DNA from: Candidatus Hodarchaeota archaeon
GTDB taxonomy: Archaea > Asgardarchaeota > Heimdallarchaeia > Hodarchaeales > Hodarchaeaceae
Length of the DNA stretch: 12,477 nucleotides
NCBI GenBank assembly: GCA_016840035.1
Contig: JAEOTC010000099.1
Coordinates: forward strand, 1-12,477
Reading direction: 5' to 3'
In this document: positions 1 to 12,477 of the stretch, in pieces
Numbering within the stretch: the first letter of the stretch is position 1
Layout of the letters: the number at the start of each line of letters is the position of its first letter
Made by a program: the position numbers and the translations under genes
The notes under the pieces: generated by a model
Told to the model about the DNA's origin: nothing
Database searches by the model: none
Seen by the model: the letters and a program-made list of their open reading frames with translations, nothing else

Positions 1-384
1 ATAACCCATTGATTCAAGGACTTTATTCACTTGTGAGACATTTCCTCCCAGATCACTTCGCTTTAGGATTTCATAGATTGGGATTACTTCTGATTGAAAT
101 GGAGAGCCTGTTTCTGACATTGGTCTGTATTGTTTAGCTGTAACTGTAAAAAATTCATTAACAAGCTCGTCAATTTGGGATAATTTCCAGAATCCTGACA
201 TTAGAGTTTCATAGTAACTTAGAAGTTTGCTTTTCATAAAGGCATTGATGCTGGAAGTGGAAAAATAAACTGAATAGACTTTTCGAGAAATCTTGTTGAC
301 TTCACTGTAGTCATTTTTAGATTCGTATTTTGAAGTCTCGAAGGAGGAGCGTATCAGGAAGTAGGATATCCAAAAGATCTTCAT
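1..384 (-). CDS. Hypothetical protein, 3'-truncated at the window edge; may instead be the frameshifted continuation of the 317..868 ORF
   Basis: Not in the ORF track. Manual translation shows a frame with no stop from 432 down to 1. First ATG is at 384: MKIFWISYFLIRSSFETSKYESKNDYSEVNKISRKVYSVYFSTSSINAFMKSKLLSYYETLMSGFWKLSQIDELVNEFF...PIYEILKRSDLGGNVSQVNKVLESMGY. No obvious Shine-Dalgarno. Confidence 0.55.
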   Translation of the reverse strand, partial: MKIFWISYFLIRSSFETSKYESKNDYSEVNKISRKVYSVYFSTSSINAFMKSKLLSYYETLMSGFWKLSQIDELVNEFFTVTAKQYRPMSETGSPFQSEVIPIYEILKRSDLGGNVSQVNKVLESMGY

Positions 385-868
385 TGTCTTCTTCAACGAA
401 TAATCTTTTCGCTTGAGTATTAATGTATTTAGCTAATTTTTTCAAATCAATTGCTGAAATATTCTTGATGGTTGGAGTGATCAGCATTTTTCCTTCTTTA
501 CTTAACACAAATATGAATTCATATGATTGTTTCCAGCTAGGTAAGCGTAGCTCTAAAAGAATGGAAGTAAAATCTACAGAAGGAAGCTGAACTATATTCT
601 TCAGGAGAAAGAAGATGACTTCTCTTTTATTATTTTGAATACGAATATCTGTTTCAGTACCTAGGCATTTTATTCTTAAAATCGGAATTTCTCGCCAATA
701 AATTTGGCTAGGTTTCGTTGAATGACTACAATAATTATCAAGAAATTCGAATGTAATTCGCCTTACTTGACCGAGCGTTAATAGAGTATCCAACAAATGA
801 GCAGGTAGAGATAGGAGAGGTACCTTGTCATTATTCTCAAACATATTATGAAGAATTCGACAATCCAT
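317..868 (-). CDS. Hypothetical protein (alpha/beta, no recognised motif)
   Basis: The ORF track gives 317..991 from a TTG that overlaps the upstream GTPase gene by 41 nt. ATG at 868 (MDCRIL...) or 844 (MFENN...) is more plausible. Co-directional with the GTPase cluster. Confidence 0.6.
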   Translation of the reverse strand: MDCRILHNMFENNDKVPLLSLPAHLLDTLLTLGQVRRITFEFLDNYCSHSTKPSQIYWREIPILRIKCLGTETDIRIQNNKREVIFFLLKNIVQLPSVDFTSILLELRLPSWKQSYEFIFVLSKEGKMLITPTIKNISAIDLKKLAKYINTQAKRLFVEEDNEDLLDILLPDTLLLRDFKIRI

Positions 869-950
869 AGTAGAGTCAGGTAGATCTATGAAAAAACCAA
901 TATAAGTCCGTTTTCGATACAAATATCCGCAAGTTCTTTGATGATGAGTA

Positions 951-1883
951 TTAACTCTCTGTAATGCTCTGTAATTGAGAGCTAAATGCAAGAACTTTGT
1001 TATATAGGGAAGCTACAGGTTCATTCCTTTCCCTAAGTCGACTTTTTGAAAATCCGAAAAATAAAGCCAATCCATTCTCCATAAACCGGATAACGAAAAC
1101 ACGTTGATCTGATTCGAGAAGTGTAGACGTAGCTGTATTAGTTTCTGAATCGGCAAGTCTCTTCACTACCGCATCAAAAAATTCTCTGACTTCATAAAGA
1201 TTAATATGTTCGAATTTTGAAACTTTTTCGACCTTAGTTAAAGGAGCTCCTTCCTTTGTAAAAATTTGCGCCATATCCGCCATGTTATGTTGAATAAAGG
1301 TTTCTAGGAGCGGACGAAGTGTCTTTCGCGCACCACTCGCATCAGCATATACTTCTCCCATCGCCTTGAATATTGTATCTGAGAATACTGAGGTTTCATA
1401 ATACTTAATTCTCTTAGGAGACCCTGCTCCTAAGTAATCTTCAATTGTTTTTCTGACCTCTTGCTTCATTTTTTTCGGAATCAGATCTGCTTTATGTTGA
1501 AAAATGAATAACGTTGCTTCTGGACTAAATTGAGACAATTTTTTAATCGCGAGATCAAGATAATATTTGGCTCGTGAAATATTTTTGATTTCTATCGAAT
1601 CTACAACGAAAACTAAAGATTTAACCCCGCTAAATATGAATTCAGATAATTCACCCGTGAATCTATCTAAGAATGACGTTTGGCCCCCTAGGTCAAAGAT
1701 TGTTACTTCAGTACCCGCTACAATTTTCTGTTTACGTTCATAATCAATCGTAGGGAGATATCTTTCATCTTTACTCGGGATTTTCCCCTCATTGACTACT
1801 TTTATAATCGTGGATTTTCCTGATTCTGCTAATCCCAAAATAAGAACTTTAGAAATTTTTTTCTTTCTTCTTAAATGCGACAT
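951..1883 (-). CDS. Rag/Gtr1-like small GTPase with C-terminal roadblock-like domain (paralog 2)
   Basis: G1 GLAESGKS, switch I PTID, G3 DLGGQ, Rag-like FIFSGVKSLVFVVD, G4 HKAD (His in place of Asn, as in Rags), G5 TSVF. C-terminal ~120 aa follow a helix-strand-strand-helix-strands-helix pattern. AGGAG upstream of the ATG. Confidence 0.85.
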   Translation of the reverse strand: MSHLRRKKKISKVLILGLAESGKSTIIKVVNEGKIPSKDERYLPTIDYERKQKIVAGTEVTIFDLGGQTSFLDRFTGELSEFIFSGVKSLVFVVDSIEIKNISRAKYYLDLAIKKLSQFSPEATLFIFQHKADLIPKKMKQEVRKTIEDYLGAGSPKRIKYYETSVFSDTIFKAMGEVYADASGARKTLRPLLETFIQHNMADMAQIFTKEGAPLTKVEKVSKFEHINLYEVREFFDAVVKRLADSETNTATSTLLESDQRVFVIRFMENGLALFFGFSKSRLRERNEPVASLYNKVLAFSSQLQSITES

Positions 1884-1898
1884 TTGTGGTTATAGCTC

Positions 1899-2705
1899 CT
1901 ATTGGGAACCAAGTTCCTGAATTACTCCGATCTTTTCCAGTATCATTTCCCGTTCCATTGGATCTGATACATTTCGTATAGAAAACCTATTTTTAAAGCG
2001 ATTTGTATTGATGTTGGAAGCTGATGCTCCAGCATGAAACATTAGATGTTGGGATATCGAATCTTTCAATTCGATTAGAAAAATACGATTAAGAAGAGTA
2101 TTCACAAGAATAAGCACGGAAAGCGATTCTAAATCTGCTTGAAGATTAATCTCAATTAAATCTCCCTCCGTATTGACTGTGAAGAATTCTAGACCACCTT
2201 TTTCGTGAACATAAGACGGTTCTGCACTATCTGGAATCGAGATGTGTGAATCTGGTGATTCAGAGATTTGTTTTATACGTGTTAAAATTATTTGCATCTT
2301 TTCTGGATCAGAGAGGTCCTTTTCATCTTTAATTTTTTTAGTCTCTTCCTGCAGGGTCCGTTCAATTACAGGATGGAGTTGAAAAATTCTTTCACGATTA
2401 ATAGAATTGAAAAGAATCCAAATAGTCGATTCTCGCCCGTGTTGGTCAATTCGAATATCTGTCGTCTCTGTTGGGGATACAGTAAAGGACATGGCTAGGG
2501 CTTCTATGTTCGGATTATTTGGAATTGGTAATGAGCCATGTAGTCGATAGTGTTGTCTTTCAGCGAGAGTTCCCGCTCCCATAAAGAGGATTGTCATTCC
2601 TATAACACTTAAGTTCTCAGCAGTGTCTTCTGGAATGTTAGACAAGTTTAAAAGAGGGTAGGGTCCCCGGTCACCCATAGTTGTAACTATTATTCCAGAA
2701 AACAT
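1899..2705 (-). CDS. Longin/uDENN-like N-terminal domain (aa ~1-148) fused to a gelsolin-homology-like C-terminal domain (aa ~170-262)
   Basis: N-terminal strand plus GP motif (GIIVTTMGDRGPYPLL); later strand-loop-strand ALAMSFTV...DIRIDQHGR-ESTIWILF; Ser/Pro/acidic linker; C-terminal LEFFTVNTEGDLIEI...LESLSVLILVN...RIFLI...FHAGASASNI...SIRNVSD. GAGGT Shine-Dalgarno upstream. The CDS is secure; the domain calls are by eye. Confidence 0.6.
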   Translation of the reverse strand: MFSGIIVTTMGDRGPYPLLNLSNIPEDTAENLSVIGMTILFMGAGTLAERQHYRLHGSLPIPNNPNIEALAMSFTVSPTETTDIRIDQHGRESTIWILFNSINRERIFQLHPVIERTLQEETKKIKDEKDLSDPEKMQIILTRIKQISESPDSHISIPDSAEPSYVHEKGGLEFFTVNTEGDLIEINLQADLESLSVLILVNTLLNRIFLIELKDSISQHLMFHAGASASNINTNRFKNRFSIRNVSDPMEREMILEKIGVIQELGSQ

Positions 2706-2735
2706 GATTTCAACCTCTAGTCACAAATTAGTGTC

Positions 2736-3680
2736 TTATTTTAGAATTTCTAAGATTTCTGTCGTAATCTCGAGACAGCTTTCTTGTATTCGAGGATATG
2801 GTTCTGCATCATACTTAAAAACTGATTCCCTTCCAATCAAGATAATTTTATTATCAGCATTGATCCTTCTTGATATCATTACAAAATCTTCAATCCGAAT
2901 AATGTCAGCTTGATATTGTGGACCAAGATCAAAGACATGAAACTGAGCTAACATACGAATAATTTGCGGACCTACACTAGTTTCCCATCCCTCACTTTTT
3001 CCAACCGCAAGTAAAATATTCTGACTATGCCCGATTAGGTAAGCTCCTGAAAATCCACAAATTTCCATTTTTTCTCTAAGGATTTTGGAAATCTTCCTCA
3101 GTTGCTTGTCACCAACTTTCTTAACACTCTGGTTCTTGTCTTTCTTAAGCTTCACACTAAATTCTACAGCTTTGTTGACTATCTGAGTGAAAATTAAGTT
3201 CGTCATCCTTTGTTGGTCAGATCCTTTCAAAGAAACAATATAAGAAGAAATTTCTTGGGGAATAATCTGTTCAAGGTGCTTTTCGACATTTTTCCGAATT
3301 TTAGTCCGTTCTAATTCATTTGGAATGAGGTGCCCTCTGTTTACTATTAGTATAACTTGAAAATTCTTATTTACAGCGCTTATATCAAAGTATATTTCCT
3401 TAAAATCATTTGTCAAGTCATCCAAGACTTGATAGGAGATATCATGAACGTAAATTAATGTGTTAATCTTCAAAAAAAGCTTTTCTTTCAATGCTGGAAG
3501 CGCTTTTTTGAAGTAGGAGTCGTCATCCCCTTTGAATGATTTATTAAGCCAATCATAATAAATTAAATTTTCCCGAAGCTTTAATCCTGGTTCTGCACGT
3601 CCTAATTTTTGTAATTGACCGAACAATAAGTCTTTCCCAGAATGAGATAAACCAGCTAGGACGATTAGATTTTGTTGCAA
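2736..3680 (-). CDS. Degenerate Rag-like (pseudo)GTPase with C-terminal roadblock/LAMTOR-like domain
   Basis: TTG start with GAGGT upstream, 10 nt after the stop of the previous gene. P-loop GLSHSGKD, G3 position YYDWLN, Rag-like LFLKINTLIYVHDIS, G4 position NRGH. C-terminal ISKILREKMEICGFSGAYLIGHSQNILLAVG...FVMISRRINADNKIILIG...CLEITTEILEIL fits the roadblock pattern. Confidence 0.7.
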   Translation of the reverse strand: MQQNLIVLAGLSHSGKDLLFGQLQKLGRAEPGLKLRENLIYYDWLNKSFKGDDDSYFKKALPALKEKLFLKINTLIYVHDISYQVLDDLTNDFKEIYFDISAVNKNFQVILIVNRGHLIPNELERTKIRKNVEKHLEQIIPQEISSYIVSLKGSDQQRMTNLIFTQIVNKAVEFSVKLKKDKNQSVKKVGDKQLRKISKILREKMEICGFSGAYLIGHSQNILLAVGKSEGWETSVGPQIIRMLAQFHVFDLGPQYQADIIRIEDFVMISRRINADNKIILIGRESVFKYDAEPYPRIQESCLEITTEILEILK

Positions 3681-3690
3681 ATTAAAACCT

Positions 3691-4695
3691 CTAAATGGGT
3701 GTTTTTAGCATACTTTCCAGTTGATGAGTAAGAAGACGAATTGTTTCTTCAATTTCTGACAAATTACGTGTCTCTAGCATTGATTTTTCATCCGAAGAGA
3801 CGAGTAAAATCAAATATTGAGGGGGTACAACGGCCCGAAAAAGCATAACCTCGCCCAGTTTTAATAATTCCGATTTAGAGCTTGGGATTAACCATAAATC
3901 TTTCGATTTATCCAGAATTGTTATGAATTGTTGAATTTCATTAACATCTGTTTCAGATGCGCTAATGATGAAATCGGGTTCAACTGTCGATAATAAGAGA
4001 ACCTCATCAAGTCGATTCATGAATTTTAACGCGTGAAGTACTTGTTGGATTGGTCGCATCCGCAATCTTCGTTGAATCGCTTCCAGATCTTCTTCTTTTT
4101 CGACAACAGTAGATTCTGGAATGATTTCACTGGCTTCGGCCGTTATTCGCTTAAAAGCCTCATGTATCGAGTTATCATAGATCGATGTTTGAAGAAAAGT
4201 GATGTTTTTTGTTACAACTGCAGTTTGGTACATCTCCATAAGAAATTCCATACGTTCAGCTCTTTGTGTTAGGTCAGGCATTAAATCTGTCTTGTGTAAC
4301 AAAATATATACAGCTGGTTGCACATCTGACATTTCTTCTAATCGATTTGTGCCTTCAATGAACGCTTTTAGGGAAGCAGGAAATTTATCAGGGGTAGAGA
4401 TATCACAAATAAAAACCAACACTGCTACATTGCTAAAAATGAAGGAACTCATACTACTAAGAAAGCGTTTTAGGAAAACTTCTTGTCCTCCAAGATCCAT
4501 AACCGTTATTGGTTCATCAGCAACTTGCTCTACTTGACGTTCATAATTCAATGTGGCTGCATAATCGGCAGTTTCTTCGGGAGCTTTTCCTCCAAAAACA
4601 ACATCACGAATGGATGTTTTTCCTGCCTGAGAAAGACCTAAAAGAATTATTTTTCGAGAGCTTTGGGTCTTTAGTTGCTTAAGATAATGACTCAT
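3691..4695 (-). CDS. RagA/Gtr1-like small GTPase with C-terminal roadblock-like domain (paralog 1)
   Basis: KIILLGLSQAGKTSIRDVVF, switch I ATLN, G3 DLGGQEVF, FIFSNVAVLVFICD, G4 HKTDL, G5 TSIYD. These parallel the RagA/Gtr1 motifs GKTSMRSIIF / GATI / DCGGQ / IFRNVEVLIYVFD / HKMDL / TSIWD, recalled from memory. Confidence 0.9.
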   Translation of the reverse strand: MSHYLKQLKTQSSRKIILLGLSQAGKTSIRDVVFGGKAPEETADYAATLNYERQVEQVADEPITVMDLGGQEVFLKRFLSSMSSFIFSNVAVLVFICDISTPDKFPASLKAFIEGTNRLEEMSDVQPAVYILLHKTDLMPDLTQRAERMEFLMEMYQTAVVTKNITFLQTSIYDNSIHEAFKRITAEASEIIPESTVVEKEEDLEAIQRRLRMRPIQQVLHALKFMNRLDEVLLLSTVEPDFIISASETDVNEIQQFITILDKSKDLWLIPSSKSELLKLGEVMLFRAVVPPQYLILLVSSDEKSMLETRNLSEIEETIRLLTHQLESMLKTPI

Positions 4696-4961: not shown

Positions 4962-6095
4962 TTAACCATCAAGTCTTTCAAGAACGACCTCTCGTGCTTT
5001 TGGGAGAGCATCCTGTCGCTTCTTTTCATGATTATCCATAAATTCCTGAATTATCCCTAGAAGGTTCTTTTTATCTTCTCCACAGAGTAATTCTCCTTTA
5101 CGACAGGAAACTTCGATTTCTTGTAGTTTTTTCTCATTAGATTGAAAGAAGTAGCGATATAAATCAAAAACACGACAAATTTCTGGTTGGCCTCCCAATT
5201 CACGCTGCTCTTCTATGGTAATGCGTCCTCCTGTGAAAGCATTCATAATCTTTTTCTTTAAAGACTTTTTAGTTTCAAATAATGTAAGTACTGACATAGG
5301 ATTTCTTTTTGCCATCTTGTCAGATCCGTCTAATCCTTGAATCAGTTTATGAAAGGTGAATCCTGGAAGCATAAATTTGTAAGTGTCTTGAAAGTACTTT
5401 TTTCGGACAAAATCATGTGACAAGCGCGCATGAGGAGCTTGATCGGCCCCAATTGGGGTCACAGTAGGGAGTGGACCATTATGTAGTTGTGGTAATAAAA
5501 TGTCAGCAACTTGTATAAATGCTGCGTTATATACACCTAATCTATGTTCTCCATAGATCGCTTTCATCATGTTATACGTTGCATGAGAGGATAAGAGGTA
5601 CCCTAATCTCATGACATCCATTTGATGGGATTGTCGATACACATATGCATTATCCAGATTAAGTCCTAATGCAATAAGATCAGCAATGTTTTCTATGGCA
5701 TTCTTTTCCGCTTGATCAAGAGGTAACCTACCATCAGCATAACTCTCAATATCTGCGATACAGAAGTAGACCTTCCCTCCTAATTTTTGGAAATATATTA
5801 CTTCATTACACGTGATTAGATTCCCAATATGGTATTCTGCGGAGCTAGGTTTGATGCCAGTCATAATTGCAAAAGGTTTCTTCTTATTGATTGCATCGAC
5901 GACTGGTTCCAATGAAGTATGCCCGAACATGATATTTCTATTCATGTAATAATGCCGTAATTTTTTGGGTAATGGATTTATTGCTTCATCTATGGGTCTA
6001 ATCCCAAATTCGCTCATTAAACGATCGTAATCTGTAACAGAACCGCCGAATGCGTCGACGACAGAGTCCGTTGGTGAATTGTCATTTGAATTCAT
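4962..6095 (-). CDS. trpS: Tryptophan--tRNA ligase, archaeal type, with divergent motifs
   Basis: TGIKPS...HIGN (HIGH), QVADIL, GADQ, KMAKR (KMSKS equivalent), AFTGGR...EQRELGG.PEIC and CRKGELLCGE.K anticodon-binding domain motifs. Confidence 0.92.
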   Translation of the reverse strand: MNSNDNSPTDSVVDAFGGSVTDYDRLMSEFGIRPIDEAINPLPKKLRHYYMNRNIMFGHTSLEPVVDAINKKKPFAIMTGIKPSSAEYHIGNLITCNEVIYFQKLGGKVYFCIADIESYADGRLPLDQAEKNAIENIADLIALGLNLDNAYVYRQSHQMDVMRLGYLLSSHATYNMMKAIYGEHRLGVYNAAFIQVADILLPQLHNGPLPTVTPIGADQAPHARLSHDFVRKKYFQDTYKFMLPGFTFHKLIQGLDGSDKMAKRNPMSVLTLFETKKSLKKKIMNAFTGGRITIEEQRELGGQPEICRVFDLYRYFFQSNEKKLQEIEVSCRKGELLCGEDKKNLLGIIQEFMDNHEKKRQDALPKAREVVLERLDG

Positions 6096-6303
6096 GATTT
6101 GTATTCCCCGTTAACGCTTGAAGAAAAAAAATGATGAACTTTTGGATGTTGTAAATCTGATCTATTCTGAATAAATTTCGCTGTACCTAAAATTAATGCT
6201 GGTGGGGTTCCACTAGCGACAACTGCCATTGGTACATCTTTCTCACATCCATTTCATCCAAAAATTCAATAGAATAAAAATTCTCTCAATGAAACAGCAC
6301 TCA

Positions 6304-7755
6304 TTACATTAGCTTATGTGTGAAGTGGTAAAAACCACTGGTTTCATATAAGAATTGGACGATGATTACGACTGCGAGTAAACTTAATCCTATACAGAAT
6401 GTCATAACACCAAGAGACCCAAATGTCTCAAAAATATATCCACCGCCAACTGTACCTAATATAGAGCCAGTTGACATTAATGCAGATGTAAATCCCATTT
6501 CTCTTCCTCTGTTTCCCTCTTTTGTGACGTCTGTGATTAAAGCCAAAGAAGCTGAACCGAATCCAGAAGCAGAAATAAGAAATATCAGAAGTAGCAAGAT
6601 AATTAGAAGGTGAGGGATATGTAGTACAATTCCAGGAGCAAATTCAAGTGGTTTACTCAATCCAAGCGAGAAAGGATTATTTAGCAAATTAATGAAGCTT
6701 TCTGGTTCAAGTCGTAGAATTGCAGCAAAAATAACTAAAAGCAGACTTGTTCCAACACAACCAAGAATGAGAAGTGGTTTTCGACCAATATTATCAGAAA
6801 GCTTTCCTAATGTTGGTTGCAAAACTCCCATAATTCCTACTCCTACTAACGCTACGAATCCAATCGTGGAAGCACCTACACCTCCTGCAGTGACTTCCTT
6901 TAAGATTACTGGAGCATAGGTTCCTCCTGCACCCACCAAAGTTGTATAGGCTAGCATAACAAATGCGAATTTTCTGAATTGTTTATTTTTTAAGCTTTGA
7001 AGCATTGCTTTAAACGGGTTTATGCCAGGATCTTCAGGTTCTGAAAGGTTCTCAAATTGAAGTACATCCGCCTCTTCTTCTTTCTTTTCGATTTTTGCTC
7101 TTTTTGGTTCATAGAATCGAAGTAAGTATAATGAAGATGCGAGGAGAAATAGAAATGTAAATATGAAGAATGAATTTTCCAATAATAAGTCCCAAGCAAT
7201 TCCACCGATTAAGAATCCACTAGCCCCACCACCTGAACGAGCTAAATAAAACTTCCCCATTGTTTCTCCATGGTTTCTTTCAGGCGCAAGATCAGCAAAC
7301 ATGGATAAAACAGGTCCAGATAGCATCGCAGATGCTAATCCTTTAAGGGCACTTGCAGAAAATAAGATCCAAAATCCATAAGTTAGGGTAGTATATTCAG
7401 TAAATATAATTGGAAAAGGTATGAAAGTTAAACCCGCTAGAAACGTCCCCGTTACTAGTAAGGGTTTTCTACCAATTTTATCACTGACTGAACCGAAAAA
7501 AGAGGCAGTCGATAATGATACAAGATAATAGACAGATAATATCATAGGTAGCTCTGCATTCGCAAAAAAACTTTGACTTCTCTCCGGTAATTCAAGAAAA
7601 TAAAGAGGTAAACAGATTACTGAGGAGGAAAAAGCCGACTCTGTAATTGCAACGATCAAGAGGAGTAATCTAACCTGCTCTCGTAATAAAAAAGTGATGG
7701 GTTGACCGAAAAAAAGTAATGTATCCTTGGGTAATGATAACGATTTACGGAGCAT
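6304..7755 (-). CDS. Major facilitator superfamily transporter (about 12 TM, DHA1/TetA-like)
   Basis: Motif A in both halves (GSVSDKIGRKPLL, GKLSDNIGRKPLL); ADLAPERNHGETMG and TDVTKEGNRGREMG loops; charged central linker; hydrophobic helices. Substrate cannot be determined. Confidence 0.92.
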   Translation of the reverse strand: MLRKSLSLPKDTLLFFGQPITFLLREQVRLLLLIVAITESAFSSSVICLPLYFLELPERSQSFFANAELPMILSVYYLVSLSTASFFGSVSDKIGRKPLLVTGTFLAGLTFIPFPIIFTEYTTLTYGFWILFSASALKGLASAMLSGPVLSMFADLAPERNHGETMGKFYLARSGGGASGFLIGGIAWDLLLENSFFIFTFLFLLASSLYLLRFYEPKRAKIEKKEEEADVLQFENLSEPEDPGINPFKAMLQSLKNKQFRKFAFVMLAYTTLVGAGGTYAPVILKEVTAGGVGASTIGFVALVGVGIMGVLQPTLGKLSDNIGRKPLLILGCVGTSLLLVIFAAILRLEPESFINLLNNPFSLGLSKPLEFAPGIVLHIPHLLIILLLLIFLISASGFGSASLALITDVTKEGNRGREMGFTSALMSTGSILGTVGGGYIFETFGSLGVMTFCIGLSLLAVVIIVQFLYETSGFYHFTHKLM

Positions 7756-8119: not shown

Positions 8120-9022
8120 ATGAAAATCTCACTAGTCGGTCTTAGCGGTTGTGGTAAAACTTCCATTTATTCAACAACATTCGGAGGAATGACTCCTTTA
8201 GAAGTCAAAGACCTCGGTCCCACGGTAATGTATGAAGTCAAGAGTCACAATTACCTCGGAATTCAAGTCTCATTATGGGATTTTGGGGGGCAGGAAAAGT
8301 ATCGTCAAAGTTATCTAGAAACACCAAAGTTATTAGCAAATACATCGATTTTGGTATTTGTTCTTGATCTTCATCATCCAGAAAACTTTGACATAGCAAA
8401 TGAATACTTTGACAATGTCTATTCGGCAATTAAAGAACAGGGAGGAGATCCTCGTATTAAGATCTTCTACCATAAATATGATACCGAGGAGTATACCAAA
8501 GAAGCTCTTGAGGAGAATCTCTCAAAGGCAAAGCAACTACCATTCATAGTAAAATATACGCCACGCGAGTTTCTAACATCTGTTTACCGGCAAGAGGAAT
8601 TAAGTGATTTCTTGAAGCAAATCTTAATTGCTGATTTTGATGAGCTAAAGAAAAGCGTTGAAGGTGCTCAAGAATTCCTTTCAAAACTGAAATCTAAAAT
8701 AATTATTACTGATGTCAATGGAAACGTTATTACACATAATATAGAAGGTTTTGCGACTGGGATTCAACTCCGTGAGGATCTACGAGAATATATTTTTGCC
8801 TGTAATGTCTTGCGTGAAAATTTCTTAACTTCAGAATCAGGATCATTTTCTGCTAGCTCTGAGGCAAAGAAGTTAAAGGTATATATCTATAATTATGTTC
8901 TGACCGTCTTAATTATGATGGATGAACATGAACCAGCTGATCCGCAGGATTCTATCAATGAATTATTGAAAGAGATGGAACTATTTGCAGAATTGCTTGT
9001 AGAGATGAGCAGTGAAGAATAA
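8120..9022 (+). CDS. Rag/Gtr-like small GTPase with C-terminal roadblock/longin-like domain (paralog 3)
   Basis: G1 GLSGCGKTS, switch I GPTV, G3 WDFGGQ, LVFVLD, G4 HKYD, G5 TSVY. C-terminal IIITDVNGNVI...LKVYIYNYVLTVLIM...INELLKEMELFAELL. GAGGT upstream. Confidence 0.88.
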   Translation: MKISLVGLSGCGKTSIYSTTFGGMTPLEVKDLGPTVMYEVKSHNYLGIQVSLWDFGGQEKYRQSYLETPKLLANTSILVFVLDLHHPENFDIANEYFDNVYSAIKEQGGDPRIKIFYHKYDTEEYTKEALEENLSKAKQLPFIVKYTPREFLTSVYRQEELSDFLKQILIADFDELKKSVEGAQEFLSKLKSKIIITDVNGNVITHNIEGFATGIQLREDLREYIFACNVLRENFLTSESGSFSASSEAKKLKVYIYNYVLTVLIMMDEHEPADPQDSINELLKEMELFAELLVEMSSEE

Positions 9023-9237: not shown

Positions 9238-9735
9238 GTGGTTGCAGCAGAAGCTCTAGATTCAACAGTTCACAAGATATTGAACTCAAGGGAGAAAGAG
9301 AGAAAGCACTTGATTCCTATTTTACAGGATATACAGAAAGAATATGGCTATTTATCCAAGGAAAATATGATCAGAATCAGCGAATATCTTGAAATGTCAC
9401 CCAACGAAGTATATGGAGTCGCTTCCTTCTATCAGCAATTTAAATTCATTAAACCCGGTAAACATATAATTTCTGTATGTTTAGGAACTGCTTGCTTTGT
9501 TAAAGGGGGTAATGTTCTCGCAGAAACGGTAAGAACAAAATTAGGAATCGAACCTGGTGAAACAACAGAAGATGGACTGTTTAGTTTCGAAAGAGTAGCA
9601 TGTTTGGGCTGTTGTGCCTTATCTCCGGTTGTTCAAATTGATAATGAGATCTACGGTCAAGTAAAACCTTCAAAATTACTTCGGCTGATTGAACGTATGA
9701 TTAAGAAAGAAAAATCAGAGGAGGCATCAAAATGA
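9238..9735 (+). CDS. nuoE: NuoE/HydC-like [2Fe-2S] subunit
   Basis: GTG start; LIPILQDIQKEYGYL, YGVASFY, CLGTAC and CLGCC [2Fe-2S] motifs; ATGA overlap with the next gene. Confidence 0.93.
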   Translation: MVAAEALDSTVHKILNSREKERKHLIPILQDIQKEYGYLSKENMIRISEYLEMSPNEVYGVASFYQQFKFIKPGKHIISVCLGTACFVKGGNVLAETVRTKLGIEPGETTEDGLFSFERVACLGCCALSPVVQIDNEIYGQVKPSKLLRLIERMIKKEKSEEASK

Positions 9736-11570
9736 CTCAAGCAGATTCACTGTCTCGATTTTCTCAAACAACTATACTAATTTGCAAAGGAACAGGATGT
9801 GTTTCCACTAAATCAGACGAAATCAGTGAGGAATTCGAGGAACAGCTGAAGAACTTTAATTTGCAGGATAAAGTGAAGGTAGATTTTACAGGTTGTCATG
9901 GATTCTGCGCTCAAGGTCCGATTGTTATTGTTGAACCAGAAGGTATAATGTATGCACAGGTAAAAACCCCTAATGTTGCGAAGATTGTTGCTTCACATCT
10001 TAAAGATGGAACACCAGTTGAAGAGCTCTTTTTTGTTGATCCCAAACTGAATAAACGTATTGGAAAATATAATGAAATTGATTTTTATAGCAAACAAACA
10101 AGGATGATTTTAGGAAATTGCGGCCATATTAATCCAGAGAATATTGATGATTATATTGAAACTGGCGGTTATTCGGGGTTAAGGAACGCTTTAGAGAAGA
10201 CTCCAGAAGAAATCATCAAAATCATCAAAGATTCAGGTCTGAGAGGAAGAGGTGGTGCAGGATTTTCTACTGGGTTGAAATGGCAATTTTGTCATAATGC
10301 TCCTGGAAGTCAGAAGTATGTAATTTGTAATGCTGATGAAGGTGATCCTGGTGCATTCATGGACCGATCTTTACTTGAGGCTGATCCCCATAGTGTTTTA
10401 GAGGGAATGATAATCGGAGCATTTGCTATTGGTGCTTCTCATGGTATAATATACGTTCGTGCTGAATATCCACTTGCAATAAAGCGCTTCACTCGTGCTC
10501 TTGAAACTGCCACGGAACTTGGATTCTTAGGTGATAACATATTAAATTCTGGCTTTTCTTTTGATATATCTGTCCATGAAGGCGCGGGAGCGTTTGTTTG
10601 CGGGGAAGAGACGGCATTAATGGCATCTATAGAAGGAGAAAGAGGTAATCCGAGAACCAGGCCACCATATCCTGCAACTTCAGGACTTTGGGGAAACCCT
10701 ACAAACATAAATAATGTCAAAACTTGGGCATCCGCTGCCTGGATTTTTAAAAACGGATGGGAGAAATTTCACGAAATAGGAGTTGAAAATGCAACAGGTA
10801 CAGCGATTTTTTCGTTGACTGGGAAAGTGAAAAATTTGGGTCTAATAGAAGTCCCAATGGGTACTCCTTTGAAAGAGATTGTATATGATATTGGTGGCGG
10901 AATATTAGATGACAGAGATTTTAAGGCTGTTCAGACAGGTGGTCCGTCTGGCGGATGTCTTCCACCAAGCCACTTGGATTCACCAGTTGATTTTGAAACG
11001 ATGGCTGCATCAGGGAGTATAATGGGTTCTGGAGGAATGATAGTTCTTGATGAAACTAATTGCATGGTGAAACTAGCTCATTATTTTCTCACATTTACCC
11101 AAGCTGAGTCTTGTGGTAAGTGTATTCCTTGTAGAATAGGAACACGAGCCATGTTGCTGATTTTAGATAAAATTATAACTGGAAAAGGCGAAGATAAGGA
11201 TTTAATGCTTCTAGAGGAGCTTGCTTATACTGTAAAAATGGGATCTCTATGTGCATTGGGACAGACTGCGCCAAATCCAGTATTAACAACACTAAAATAT
11301 TTCCGGAACGAATATCAATCACATATTTTCGACAAACGGTGTATAGCCAAGGATTGTCAAGATCTAATCAATTATGTAATTGATGAGTCTTTGTGTAATG
11401 GATGTACAACATGCGCACGGAATTGCCCCGTTAATGCTATAACTGGAGAAAAAGGACAAGTTCATTTTATCGATACTTCTGAATGTGTAAAATGTGGTAT
11501 CTGCTATTCAAGTTGTCCAAAAACAGCTATCTACAAAGAAGATAGGCCATTTGAGGTGATAGAACAATGA
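9732..11570 (+). CDS. nuoF: NuoF/HydB-like FMN/NADH-binding subunit, long form with N-terminal [2Fe-2S] and C-terminal 2x[4Fe-4S] domains
   Basis: CKGTGC/GCHGFC, GLRGRGGAGF, NADEGDPGAFMDR, GAGAFVCGEETAL, GGPSGG, ESCGKCIPCRIG...LC, and two CxxCxxCxxxCP motifs. GGAGG upstream. Confidence 0.95.
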   Translation: MTQADSLSRFSQTTILICKGTGCVSTKSDEISEEFEEQLKNFNLQDKVKVDFTGCHGFCAQGPIVIVEPEGIMYAQVKTPNVAKIVASHLKDGTPVEELFFVDPKLNKRIGKYNEIDFYSKQTRMILGNCGHINPENIDDYIETGGYSGLRNALEKTPEEIIKIIKDSGLRGRGGAGFSTGLKWQFCHNAPGSQKYVICNADEGDPGAFMDRSLLEADPHSVLEGMIIGAFAIGASHGIIYVRAEYPLAIKRFTRALETATELGFLGDNILNSGFSFDISVHEGAGAFVCGEETALMASIEGERGNPRTRPPYPATSGLWGNPTNINNVKTWASAAWIFKNGWEKFHEIGVENATGTAIFSLTGKVKNLGLIEVPMGTPLKEIVYDIGGGILDDRDFKAVQTGGPSGGCLPPSHLDSPVDFETMAASGSIMGSGGMIVLDETNCMVKLAHYFLTFTQAESCGKCIPCRIGTRAMLLILDKIITGKGEDKDLMLLEELAYTVKMGSLCALGQTAPNPVLTTLKYFRNEYQSHIFDKRCIAKDCQDLINYVIDESLCNGCTTCARNCPVNAITGEKGQVHFIDTSECVKCGICYSSCPKTAIYKEDRPFEVIEQ

Positions 11571-12477
11571 ACAAATGGATGAATATAAACGGAAGACGGG
11601 TTGTATTCGAAGAAGGGGAGACTGTGCTAGAAGTTGCCACTAAAGCAGGATTTTACATCCCTACACTTTGTGCAAGACCAGATCTTCCTTCATTTGGAGC
11701 ATGCAGATTATGTATTATTGATGTAGAAGGAGCTCGAACATATCCTAATTCTTGTACATTACCTGCCAGGGAAGGGATGGTCGTGAGAACTGCTACTCCT
11801 GATTTGCAGGCGGTACGTCGTAATGTATTTCAACTCATACTTGCTGAACATCCTAGTTACTGTATCATCTGTAAGGAACATGATGAGTGTGAGAAAGTTC
11901 GTCATGGTGAATACAAAGCTGGACGAGTTATTGGATGCTTCACTTGTAGTAACAAAGAAATCTGCGAAATCCGAGAAATTTCTGAATATTTAAGAATTAA
12001 AGAAATACGATATCCCATGCTTTATAAGAACTTACCCTTAGAACGGGATGATCCCTTCTTAATAAGAGATTATAATCTGTGTATTTTGTGTGCAAGATGT
12101 GTTAGGGCCTGTCAAGATGTTTTAGGATATAGTGCTATAGATTTAACAAAACGTGGCCACGATACTAAGATCGGGACAATTTCTGAAGTATCTCACCTTG
12201 AAAGTGGATGTGTATTTTGTGGACATTGTATCGATGTTTGCCCTACAGGTGCCCTCATTGCGCGGGGTTCAACATGGTTTGGTACCCCAGATAAATCTGT
12301 CACCACTACATGTAATCTATGCTCCCATGGTTGTCAAATGGTAATAGATATTAAATGGGATAAAGTTGTAAACGTACATCCTCCATATGAATTATCTGCT
12401 CGTCGTGAATACTGTGTTAAAGGACGTTTTTGTATTCCCGCTTTAGTTAATAGTCGTGATCGGCTGAAATACCCTAC
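11567..12477 (+). CDS. NuoG/FdhA-like molybdopterin-oxidoreductase alpha subunit, 3'-truncated
   Basis: Not in the ORF track. ATG at 11567 overlaps the nuoF stop (ATGA), with GAGGTGA upstream, and the frame is open to the window end. Motifs: IPTLC...GACRLC...SC [2Fe-2S], HPSYCIICKEHDEC, CILCARCVRAC, CVFCGHCIDVCPTGAL, then TTCNLCSHGC...CVKGRF...DRLKYP, the Fe4S4 domain of Mo/W-bisPGD enzymes. Confidence 0.9.
   Translation, partial: MNKWMNINGRRVVFEEGETVLEVATKAGFYIPTLCARPDLPSFGACRLCIIDVEGARTYPNSCTLPAREGMVVRTATPDLQAVRRNVFQLILAEHPSYCIICKEHDECEKVRHGEYKAGRVIGCFTCSNKEICEIREISEYLRIKEIRYPMLYKNLPLERDDPFLIRDYNLCILCARCVRACQDVLGYSAIDLTKRGHDTKIGTISEVSHLESGCVFCGHCIDVCPTGALIARGSTWFGTPDKSVTTTCNLCSHGCQMVIDIKWDKVVNVHPPYELSARREYCVKGRFCIPALVNSRDRLKYP

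Follow-up and report, generated by a model that had tools for sequence, protein, structure and literature searches.

The stretch analyzed here (hereafter, the window) is the whole of contig JAEOTC010000099.1, 12,477 nucleotides in length, from an Asgard assembly (GCA_016840035.1) assigned to a “Candidatus Hodarchaeota” archaeon (4.3 Mb, 87% complete). Its central subject is a gene, here called pseudoRag, that encodes a Rag-family protein with a degenerate G domain and a C-terminal roadblock domain (CRD). The gene follows an intact Rag-like gene, RagL1, and is itself followed by a gene for a longin/gelsolin protein and by a second intact Rag-like gene, RagL2 (Table 1). The order RagL1, pseudoRag, longin/gelsolin protein (259 to 275 residues), and RagL2 was found in all related loci except those interrupted by a contig end, even where the identity of pseudoRag is only 46 to 52%.

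RagL1 and pseudoRag are closely joined. The RagL1 stop codon lies ten bases upstream of the pseudoRag open reading frame (ORF), its TAG being embedded in the sequence TAGAGGT, and it overlaps the GAGG Shine-Dalgarno (SD) sequence of pseudoRag, located 7 nt 5' of the TTG start codon. Because TAGAGG followed by TTG (GTG once) recurs in about 20 of 22 loci, both the overlap of stop codon and SD sequence and the weak start are conserved features. This layout suggests translational coupling of pseudoRag to RagL1, and the weak start kept along with it perhaps sets the stoichiometry of pseudoRag.

Table 1. Coordinates of pseudoRag, its domains and motifs, and the neighboring genes in the window
Feature	Position	Strand	Description and basis
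pseudoRag	2736-3680	-	314 residues; Rag-family G domain and roadblock CRD; TTG start, TAA stop
Degenerate G domain, residues 1-185	3126-3680	-	Five-stranded sheet without beta2 and switch I; AlphaFold2 (AF2) model, VIA
C-terminal roadblock domain, residues 186-314	2739-3125	-	VIA matches to 9jue_B and MglB
G1/P-loop GLSHSGKD, residues 10-17	3630-3653	-	Motif comparison with window paralogs and ortholog clusters
Single strand replacing beta2-beta3, then D43-W44 (LIYYDWLN)	3543-3566	-	AF2 model, motif positions, ortholog clusters
G4 place, N114-R-G-H117	3330-3341	-	Replaces HKxD; motif positions
G5 place, S150-L-K152	3225-3233	-	96/96 ortholog clusters; Ras consensus S-A-K
RagL1 stop TAG (3693-3691) and SD sequence GAGGT (3691-3687)	3687-3693	-	Overlapping; kept in about 20/22 orthologous loci
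RagL1	3691-4695	-	Intact Rag-like GTPase-roadblock protein; GKT, DLGGQ, HKTD; upstream of pseudoRag
Longin/gelsolin protein	1899-2705	-	268 residues; downstream neighbor of pseudoRag; NPRL2/3-FLCN-like longin fold
RagL2	951-1883	-	Intact Rag-like GTPase-roadblock protein; “B” clade
RagL3	8120-9022	+	Third intact Rag-like GTPase; divergent, beyond the MFS and trpS genes; syntenic in related genomes

Fold and nucleotide-pocket motifs

An initial annotation of the window, made from the sequence, had described pseudoRag as a Rag-like core with a roadblock-like tail and had proposed structure prediction as a check. The AF2 model, built on 47 orthologs (pLDDT, 87.7; pTM, 0.82), agrees with that description, showing a Rag G domain followed by a roadblock fold. 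The best Foldseek matches of the model are all Rag/Gtr chains (Gtr1, RagA, RagC, and Gtr2, with E values of 5e-13 to 1e-10) and cover both domains, and the solved Asgard Rag-like proteins rank after them. In VIA comparisons, residues 2 to 172 match the G domain of RagD (2q3f_B) over 151 residues with a Z score of 14.3 and a root-mean-square deviation (rmsd) of 3.1 Å, while residues 193 to 314 match a subunit of the MK-D1 roadblock homodimer (9jue_B) over 110 residues (Z, 13.7; rmsd, 2.3 Å). The CRD also matches MglB (Z, 13.6), and its roadblock/MglB matches as a group fall within Z scores of 13.4 to 13.7. In Pfam, the Gtr1_RagA family (PF04670) is recognized with 25.3 bits (cut-off, 22) and over residues 54 to 142 only, compared with 76 to 115 bits for the paralogs. 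PseudoRag thus has both the architecture of the Rag/Gtr family and a Pfam match above the cut-off. The term “Ragulator-like,” which the initial annotation had applied to a possible scaffold role, does not suit this architecture, because Ragulator/LAMTOR-type proteins are small roadblock subunits without a G domain, whereas pseudoRag keeps a full and conserved G domain of 185 residues.

In place of the functional G1 to G5 set (GxxxxGK[ST], the switch I Thr, DxxGQ, HKxD, and TS[IV]), pseudoRag carries GKD, DWLN, NRGH, and SLK. Its P-loop reads G10-L-S-H-S-G-K16-D17, compared with GKT, GKS, and GKT in the three paralogs of the window, and of the ortholog clusters, 80 have Asp at residue 17, 3 have Asn, and 2 have Glu, with Ser or Thr in none. 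Only 27 residues separate the P-loop Lys from the Asp of the next strand (K16/D43), as opposed to 41 in each of the three paralogs (K26/D67, K23/D64, and K13/D54). The conserved switch I Thr has no counterpart in this shortened stretch, and no part of the protein contains a DxxG. At the G4 place, NRGH stands against HKTD, HKAD, and HKYD in the paralogs. The unusual residues are also fixed or nearly so: Asp43 and Trp44 each occur in 92 of 94 ortholog clusters, His79-Asp-Ile81 in 94 of 94, and Asn114, Arg115, His117, and Leu118 in all 96.

The AF2 model accounts for the shortened spacing. Between helix 1 (residues 13 to 29) and helix 2 (residues 56 to 71) it holds a single three-residue strand (residues 39 to 41), which indicates that the switch I/beta2 hairpin is gone. 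An alignment register obtained with MAFFT and hhalign, in which the surviving strand stands opposite beta2, was rejected on topology, as a lone strand that comes straight after helix 1, next to beta1, has to be beta3 by position; the initial annotation had assumed the same. Since the surviving strand must occupy the beta3 position, Asp43 is placed at the site of the DxxG Asp.

Taken together, the Mg-ligand hydroxyl, the G2 Thr, the G3 glycine and Gln, and the guanine-specifying G4 Asp have all been lost, and among about 18 long Rag/Arf-like proteins of the genome, pseudoRag alone is without GK[ST], DxxG, and [HN]KxD together. The P-loop GKD, the DWLN and NRGH sequences, the spacing of 27 versus 41 residues, and the loss of switch I had all been reported in the initial annotation and are borne out by the comparison with the three paralogs and by the model. 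Its further statement that every nucleotide-handling motif is altered is correct for four motif changes and overstated as a whole, since GxxxxGK, a Walker-B-like hhhhD strand (LIYYD43), and S150-L-K152 at the G5 place are retained. As judged from these residues, pseudoRag would be counted as a pseudoGTPase, that is, a protein whose G-motif changes are predicted to abolish GTP binding or hydrolysis. Because the fold and the Pfam match are those of the Rag family and the catalytic motifs are absent, pseudoRag belongs to that family by structure and by evolution but is not a canonical GTPase.

Conservation and origin

A search of 5.8 billion proteins yielded 96 clusters of full-length pseudoRag relatives (44 to 84% identity), nearly all of them 305 to 317 residues long. 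Among 400 Asgard species genomes, pseudoRag occurs as a single copy without internal stops in 20 of the 21 genomes of one GTDB Hodarchaeales genus-level group; in the 21st, which lacks it, RagL1 is cut by a contig end. The other 379 Asgard species genomes have none: outside the genus-level group, a single-sequence search of the 400 genomes and a profile search of the class gave only weak partial matches (best, 30.7 bits).

In comparisons with three genomes at about 80% protein identity, the dN/dS ratio of pseudoRag (Nei-Gojobori method) is 0.04 to 0.10, compared with 0.014 to 0.07 for RagL1 and RagL2 and 0.016 to 0.037 for trpS. Although dS is saturated, purifying selection is beyond doubt because pN is about 0.10 versus a pS of 0.57 to 0.74. 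The rate of evolution of pseudoRag is about double that of the intact neighbors (47 to 55% identity versus 75 to 82% for RagL1 and 73 to 78% for RagL2). It is nevertheless strongly conserved, is under strong purifying selection, and is not decaying. The view of the initial annotation that the gene is maintained, rather than an incipient pseudogene, is therefore upheld by orthologs in 20 of 21 genomes, by the low dN/dS ratio, by near-invariant odd motifs, and by fixed synteny and start. The dN/dS comparison across orthologs had been proposed there as a check; neither absence nor neutral decay of orthologs was seen.

Conservation is distributed unevenly along the protein. The most conserved segments are beta1 with G1, beta4, beta5 with G4, and beta6 with G5, with major-residue frequencies of 0.85 to 0.90, while the stretch that replaces the switch (residues 47 to 55) has the lowest value within the G domain (0.52). 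As a whole, the G domain reaches 0.70 versus 0.63 for the roadblock domain. Within the CRD, helix alpha2 (residues 230 to 245) and strands beta3 to beta5 are conserved best; these are the elements through which roadblock domains form dimers.

Several profile comparisons single out RagL1 as the closest relative of pseudoRag. When the pseudoRag family profile was run against 1.84 billion representative sequences, four matches were obtained, namely its own cluster, two fragments, and one RagL1 ortholog, which was matched over its full length (E value, 3.6e-5). Profile-profile alignment with hhalign gave an E value of 2.5e-7 for RagL1 over 257 columns, including the roadblock domain, compared with 0.053 over 76 columns for RagL2 and 0.01 over 101 columns for RagL3. 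Within the source genome, the only non-self matches of the family hidden Markov model are RagL1 (29 bits) and one more Rag-like protein (23 bits). In a language-model atlas, a 334-residue Hodarchaeota cluster ranked first for pseudoRag. In a maximum likelihood (ML) tree of 39 Rag-like sequences, the pseudoRag family falls in a polytomy, its stem being 2.58 substitutions per site long, with a warning of long-branch attraction. On the strength of the profile comparisons, descent from the RagL1 lineage, plausibly via tandem duplication, is the best-supported reading and the most likely one.

A sister family of the same order (locus L040; G079:C631, positions 383 to 3260) encodes an intact Rag-like protein of 362 residues, a RagL2-like protein that is also intact (308 residues; 35% identical to RagL2), and a longin protein, without a pseudoGTPase between them. 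Because this related cassette does without the degenerate member, pseudoRag looks like an addition within one lineage.

Partners, neighbors, and proposed function

The model of the downstream longin/gelsolin protein (pLDDT, 75.6) matches a Lokiarchaeal longin domain in its N-terminal half (E value, 6e-6). Further longin matches are GATOR1 chains (9o5d_D, 8fw5_C, and 7t3b_C), chain 6ulg_N of the FLCN-FNIP2-Rag-Ragulator complex, and SMCR8-C9orf72 chains, and the C-terminal part matches gelsolin domains in the fold search. Arg85 and Arg91 are invariant in 15 orthologs, and the full-length protein is restricted to the same genus-level lineage as pseudoRag. One ortholog (G057:C98:3455-4252) contains an in-frame TAA, which may reflect either a sequencing error or a broken copy.

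With regard to partners, the ML tree contains a “B” clade (support, 96) that comprises RagL2, the sister-family protein RagY, and several paralogs. Wherever Rag-like genes are adjacent elsewhere in the source genome and in the sister family (the a/b pairs on contigs C157 and C28 and the sister-family pair RagX/RagY), one member belongs to the B clade and the other does not. The C157 (312-1208, reverse, and 1437-3581, forward) and C28 (18083-18985, reverse, and 19418-21100, forward) pairs are intact and divergently transcribed, each combining a B-clade member of about 300 residues with a long non-B member (560 to 714 residues). These pairs suggest that several RagA/RagC-like heterodimers exist within one archaeal genome. 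The pairing of B with non-B members resembles the logic of eukaryotic RagA-RagC and suggests that RagL1 (non-B) and RagL2 (B) form the canonical pair of the locus. As pseudoRag probably comes from the non-B side, it should have retained an affinity for RagL2 and would act as an alternative, locked partner. Gene adjacency and translational coupling, on the other hand, point to RagL1 as the partner. The obligate heterodimer partner or scaffold of the initial annotation is an inference drawn from gene order and from the behavior of the family. A three-chain model in which the roadblock domains of RagL1 (residues 194 to 334) and RagL2 (residues 183 to 310) compete for that of pseudoRag (residues 186 to 314) gave scores of 0.21 and 0.29, both under the mark of 0.32, which speaks neither for binding nor against it.

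A second degenerate Rag-like protein is encoded outside the window (C77:5209-5847, reverse strand). It has 212 residues, is of the RagL2 type, and is without the roadblock tail; the P-loop Lys is lost (SGSGMPGVTS), G3 reads DLGCQ, and NKID is intact, so that it may be either a pseudoGTPase or a fragment.

We consider it probable that pseudoRag is a lineage-specific, strongly conserved pseudoGTPase of the Rag/Gtr family that derives from the RagL1 lineage and serves as the fixed-state subunit of a four-gene Rag-like module. Three kinds of change would underlie this state: (i) loss of the switch I/beta2 hairpin with the G2 Thr, and of DxxGQ with the gamma-phosphate glycine and the catalytic Gln, (ii) replacement of the Mg-binding Ser/Thr of the P-loop by Asp, and (iii) replacement of the guanine-specifying Asp of HKxD by His. 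With the switch parts, the Mg ligand, and the G4 Asp lost, pseudoRag should be unable to switch or to hydrolyze GTP in the canonical manner, and its sequence and model predict no cycling between GTP and GDP. Translated in coupling with RagL1, it would pair through its roadblock domain with that of an intact paralog, either RagL2, by the logic of the A/B pairs, or RagL1, by adjacency. Such a dimer would be asymmetric, the G domain being live in one subunit and locked in the other. The invariant, remodeled pocket face may receive a ligand or dock a protein, perhaps the longin protein encoded next door.

Several observations weigh against this proposal or limit it. The solved Asgard Rag-like proteins are, by their PDB titles, a monomer and a homotetramer, and Rag dimerization is therefore not universal in archaea. 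In pseudoRag, conservation peaks at the end of beta4 and in the loops of G1, G4, and G5 (0.85 to 0.90, compared with 0.63 for the CRD). Because these pocket loops are so well kept and GxxxxGK, the Walker-B-like Asp, and S-x-K survive, a nucleotide or another ligand may still bind, and “pseudo” may then mean non-switching rather than empty. The invariance of the pocket face also argues against a purely passive scaffold. Lastly, the ML tree does not settle the position of pseudoRag among its paralogs, and its apparent descent from RagL1 is drawn from profile similarity.

A first alternative, which takes up the conservation of the pocket, is that pseudoRag is a non-hydrolyzing G protein of altered specificity with a constitutively bound ligand. 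It would then serve as a sensor or as a subunit kept permanently on or off, and not as an empty scaffold. Phosphate and Mg would be held by the P-loop Lys, by Asp43, and possibly by Asp17, while N114, R115, and H117 together with S150-L-K152 would form a base pocket for ATP, for a GDP-only state, or for some other phosphorylated ligand. The odd residues of the pocket are invariant, and the surviving P-loop pattern, the hhhhD strand, and S-x-K would all be used. Altered motifs need not abolish binding: GDP is still bound after P-loop changes of the Ras S17N type, and ATP is bound by YchF/Ola1, in which G4 is altered. However, pseudoRag has no Mg-binding hydroxyl, G2 Thr, gamma-phosphate glycine, or guanine-specifying Asp, and an acidic side chain near the beta-phosphate site would be unfavorable unless bridged by a metal. 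We regard a permanently occupied pocket as possible but clearly less probable than the fixed-state subunit.

A second alternative makes the longin protein the main ligand. The switch-less G domain of pseudoRag might imitate a Rag substrate and hold the longin protein in a stable complex, as a decoy that sequesters it from RagL1 and RagL2 or as an anchor that presents it on a platform, in an archaeal counterpart of the action of mammalian RagB-long on GATOR1. The two genes are immediate neighbors in every locus and are confined to the same genus-level lineage, Arg85 and Arg91 of the longin protein, whose longin fold is NPRL2/3-FLCN-like, are invariant, and the pocket face of pseudoRag is invariant as well. 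A precedent is available in RagB-long, a low-affinity binder of GTP that behaves as a sponge toward Nprl2/3 (PMC9481464). However, adjacency by itself is weak evidence for binding, and the activity of the longin protein as a GTPase-activating protein (GAP) is itself putative, which leaves the decoy or anchor an unlikely explanation. A more specific form of the same idea, which we hold to be slightly less likely again, is that pseudoRag is a dedicated receptor for the longin/gelsolin protein, in which a phosphate-mimicking Asp17 and the pocket face would capture the conserved arginine of the longin protein, and the resulting constitutive complex would gate GAP action on RagL1 and RagL2.

It is very improbable that pseudoRag is a fully active GTPase with non-canonical catalysis, for example, through residues supplied in trans by a partner. 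Some GTPase families do work without the switch II Gln, and the P-loop Lys and Asp43 are retained here, but the loss affects G2, the G3 glycine, the Mg ligand, and the guanine-specifying Asp at once, and the switch I/beta2 hairpin is missing entirely. Finally, the weak TTG start and the fastest evolution among the operon products (dN of about 0.11 versus 0.04) might recall an incipient pseudogene or a chance ORF, an explanation to which we give practically no weight, as it is refuted by the conservation data (no internal stops, a dN/dS ratio of at most 0.1, invariant motifs, a confident fold, and a conserved TTG).

The remaining genes of the window lie on both sides of the module. Directly upstream of RagL1 and co-directional with it are trpS (tRNA-synt_1b) and an MFS transporter gene (4962-7755, reverse strand); this arrangement is kept in loci L002 to L005, while in L001 the MFS gene is present and trpS is not at that place. 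In related loci (L001 and L003 to L005), RagL2 is followed by a conserved protein of 175 to 183 residues without a Pfam match and then by a Peptidase_M50 gene. In the window, the corresponding TTG ORF of 224 residues (317-991, reverse strand) overlaps the end of RagL2, and its true start is probably further downstream. RagL3 is flanked by genes with features of a NuoE-like 2Fe-2S thioredoxin-like type and of a NuoF/NuoG-like Fe-S type (9238-12475, forward strand), apparently a module of the electron-bifurcating hydrogenase or formate dehydrogenase type that is unrelated to pseudoRag.

Relation to known systems

PseudoGTPases such as CENP-M, the pG domains of p190RhoGAP, and Rnd/RhoH have the fold of a GTPase, but their G motifs do not allow nucleotide binding or hydrolysis, and they are retained for scaffold or regulatory roles. 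They share with pseudoRag the fold and the changed G motifs; to our knowledge, they all come from eukaryotes, and the Rag family is not represented among them. In the papers that could be searched, we found no description of pseudoRag, no mention of a degenerate Asgard Rag-like protein, and no link between pseudoGTPases and Asgard or other archaea. What appears to be new, therefore, is a Rag-family pseudoGTPase in an archaeon, Asgard Rag-like proteins and pseudoGTPases as such being already known.

MglB, LC7, and LAMTOR proteins have the same roadblock fold as the C-terminal 130 residues of pseudoRag (Z, 13.4 to 13.7), form dimers, and regulate small GTPases. They are stand-alone roadblock domains, whereas pseudoRag adds a full, degenerate G domain. 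Asgard Rag-like proteins of GTPase-roadblock architecture have been described, together with an operon-encoded pair from MK-D1 that is predicted to heterodimerize (PMC10933270), and a degenerate member is not mentioned in that paper. The MK-D1 pair, LokiRagO (8yl2), and LokiRagM (8zla and 9m28) resemble pseudoRag in architecture, phylum, occurrence of operon pairs, and structural matches. According to their PDB titles, however, LokiRagO and LokiRagM were crystallized with GTP or GDP and hence bind nucleotide, which pseudoRag may not do.

A further comparison is with RagB-long, a Rag paralog in which an altered switch I lowers GTP affinity and which serves as a sponge for Nprl2/3 (GATOR1); its authors likened it to pseudoGTPases (PMC9481464). 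RagB-long is a splice isoform with an insertion in switch I and otherwise intact motifs, whereas pseudoRag has a deletion of switch I, four changed motifs, and a gene of its own. With the eukaryotic Rag/Gtr proteins in general (RagA/B-RagC/D and Gtr1-Gtr2), pseudoRag shares the order of G domain and roadblock domain, its best structural matches, and the Pfam Gtr1_RagA match, and its gene adjoins one for a longin protein, the type of protein from which Rag GAPs are built. Sequence identity is only 12 to 16%, and all four eukaryotic Rags have intact G1 to G5 motifs and act via nucleotide states, whereas pseudoRag is without switch I/beta2, DxxGQ, the P-loop Ser/Thr, and the HKxD Asp.

Rag GTPases, roadblock dimers, and longin-type GAPs are the core of nutrient signaling in eukaryotes, and their only prokaryotic relatives are found in Asgard archaea. 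In the RagGtr clade, the eukaryotes have been reported to be nested among Asgard sequences (bioRxiv 10.1101/2024.02.28.582541). Our findings suggest that one Hodarchaeales lineage went beyond the duplication of Rag-like genes, with one copy turned into a conserved, probably non-switching subunit within a compact Rag-longin operon. The pairing of a live enzyme with a dead paralog would be the same step that built many eukaryotic regulatory complexes. Small size, joint encoding, and the absence of eukaryotic accessory factors make the four proteins a tractable system in which to study asymmetric Rag dimers and longin GAPs. If the longin-receptor explanation were true, the module would amount to a minimal four-gene archaeal analog of Rag-GATOR1/FLCN regulation, in the order that has been placed closest to eukaryotes. 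Because pseudoRag is confined to one genus-level lineage, it would represent a parallel invention and not an ancestor of the eukaryotic system.

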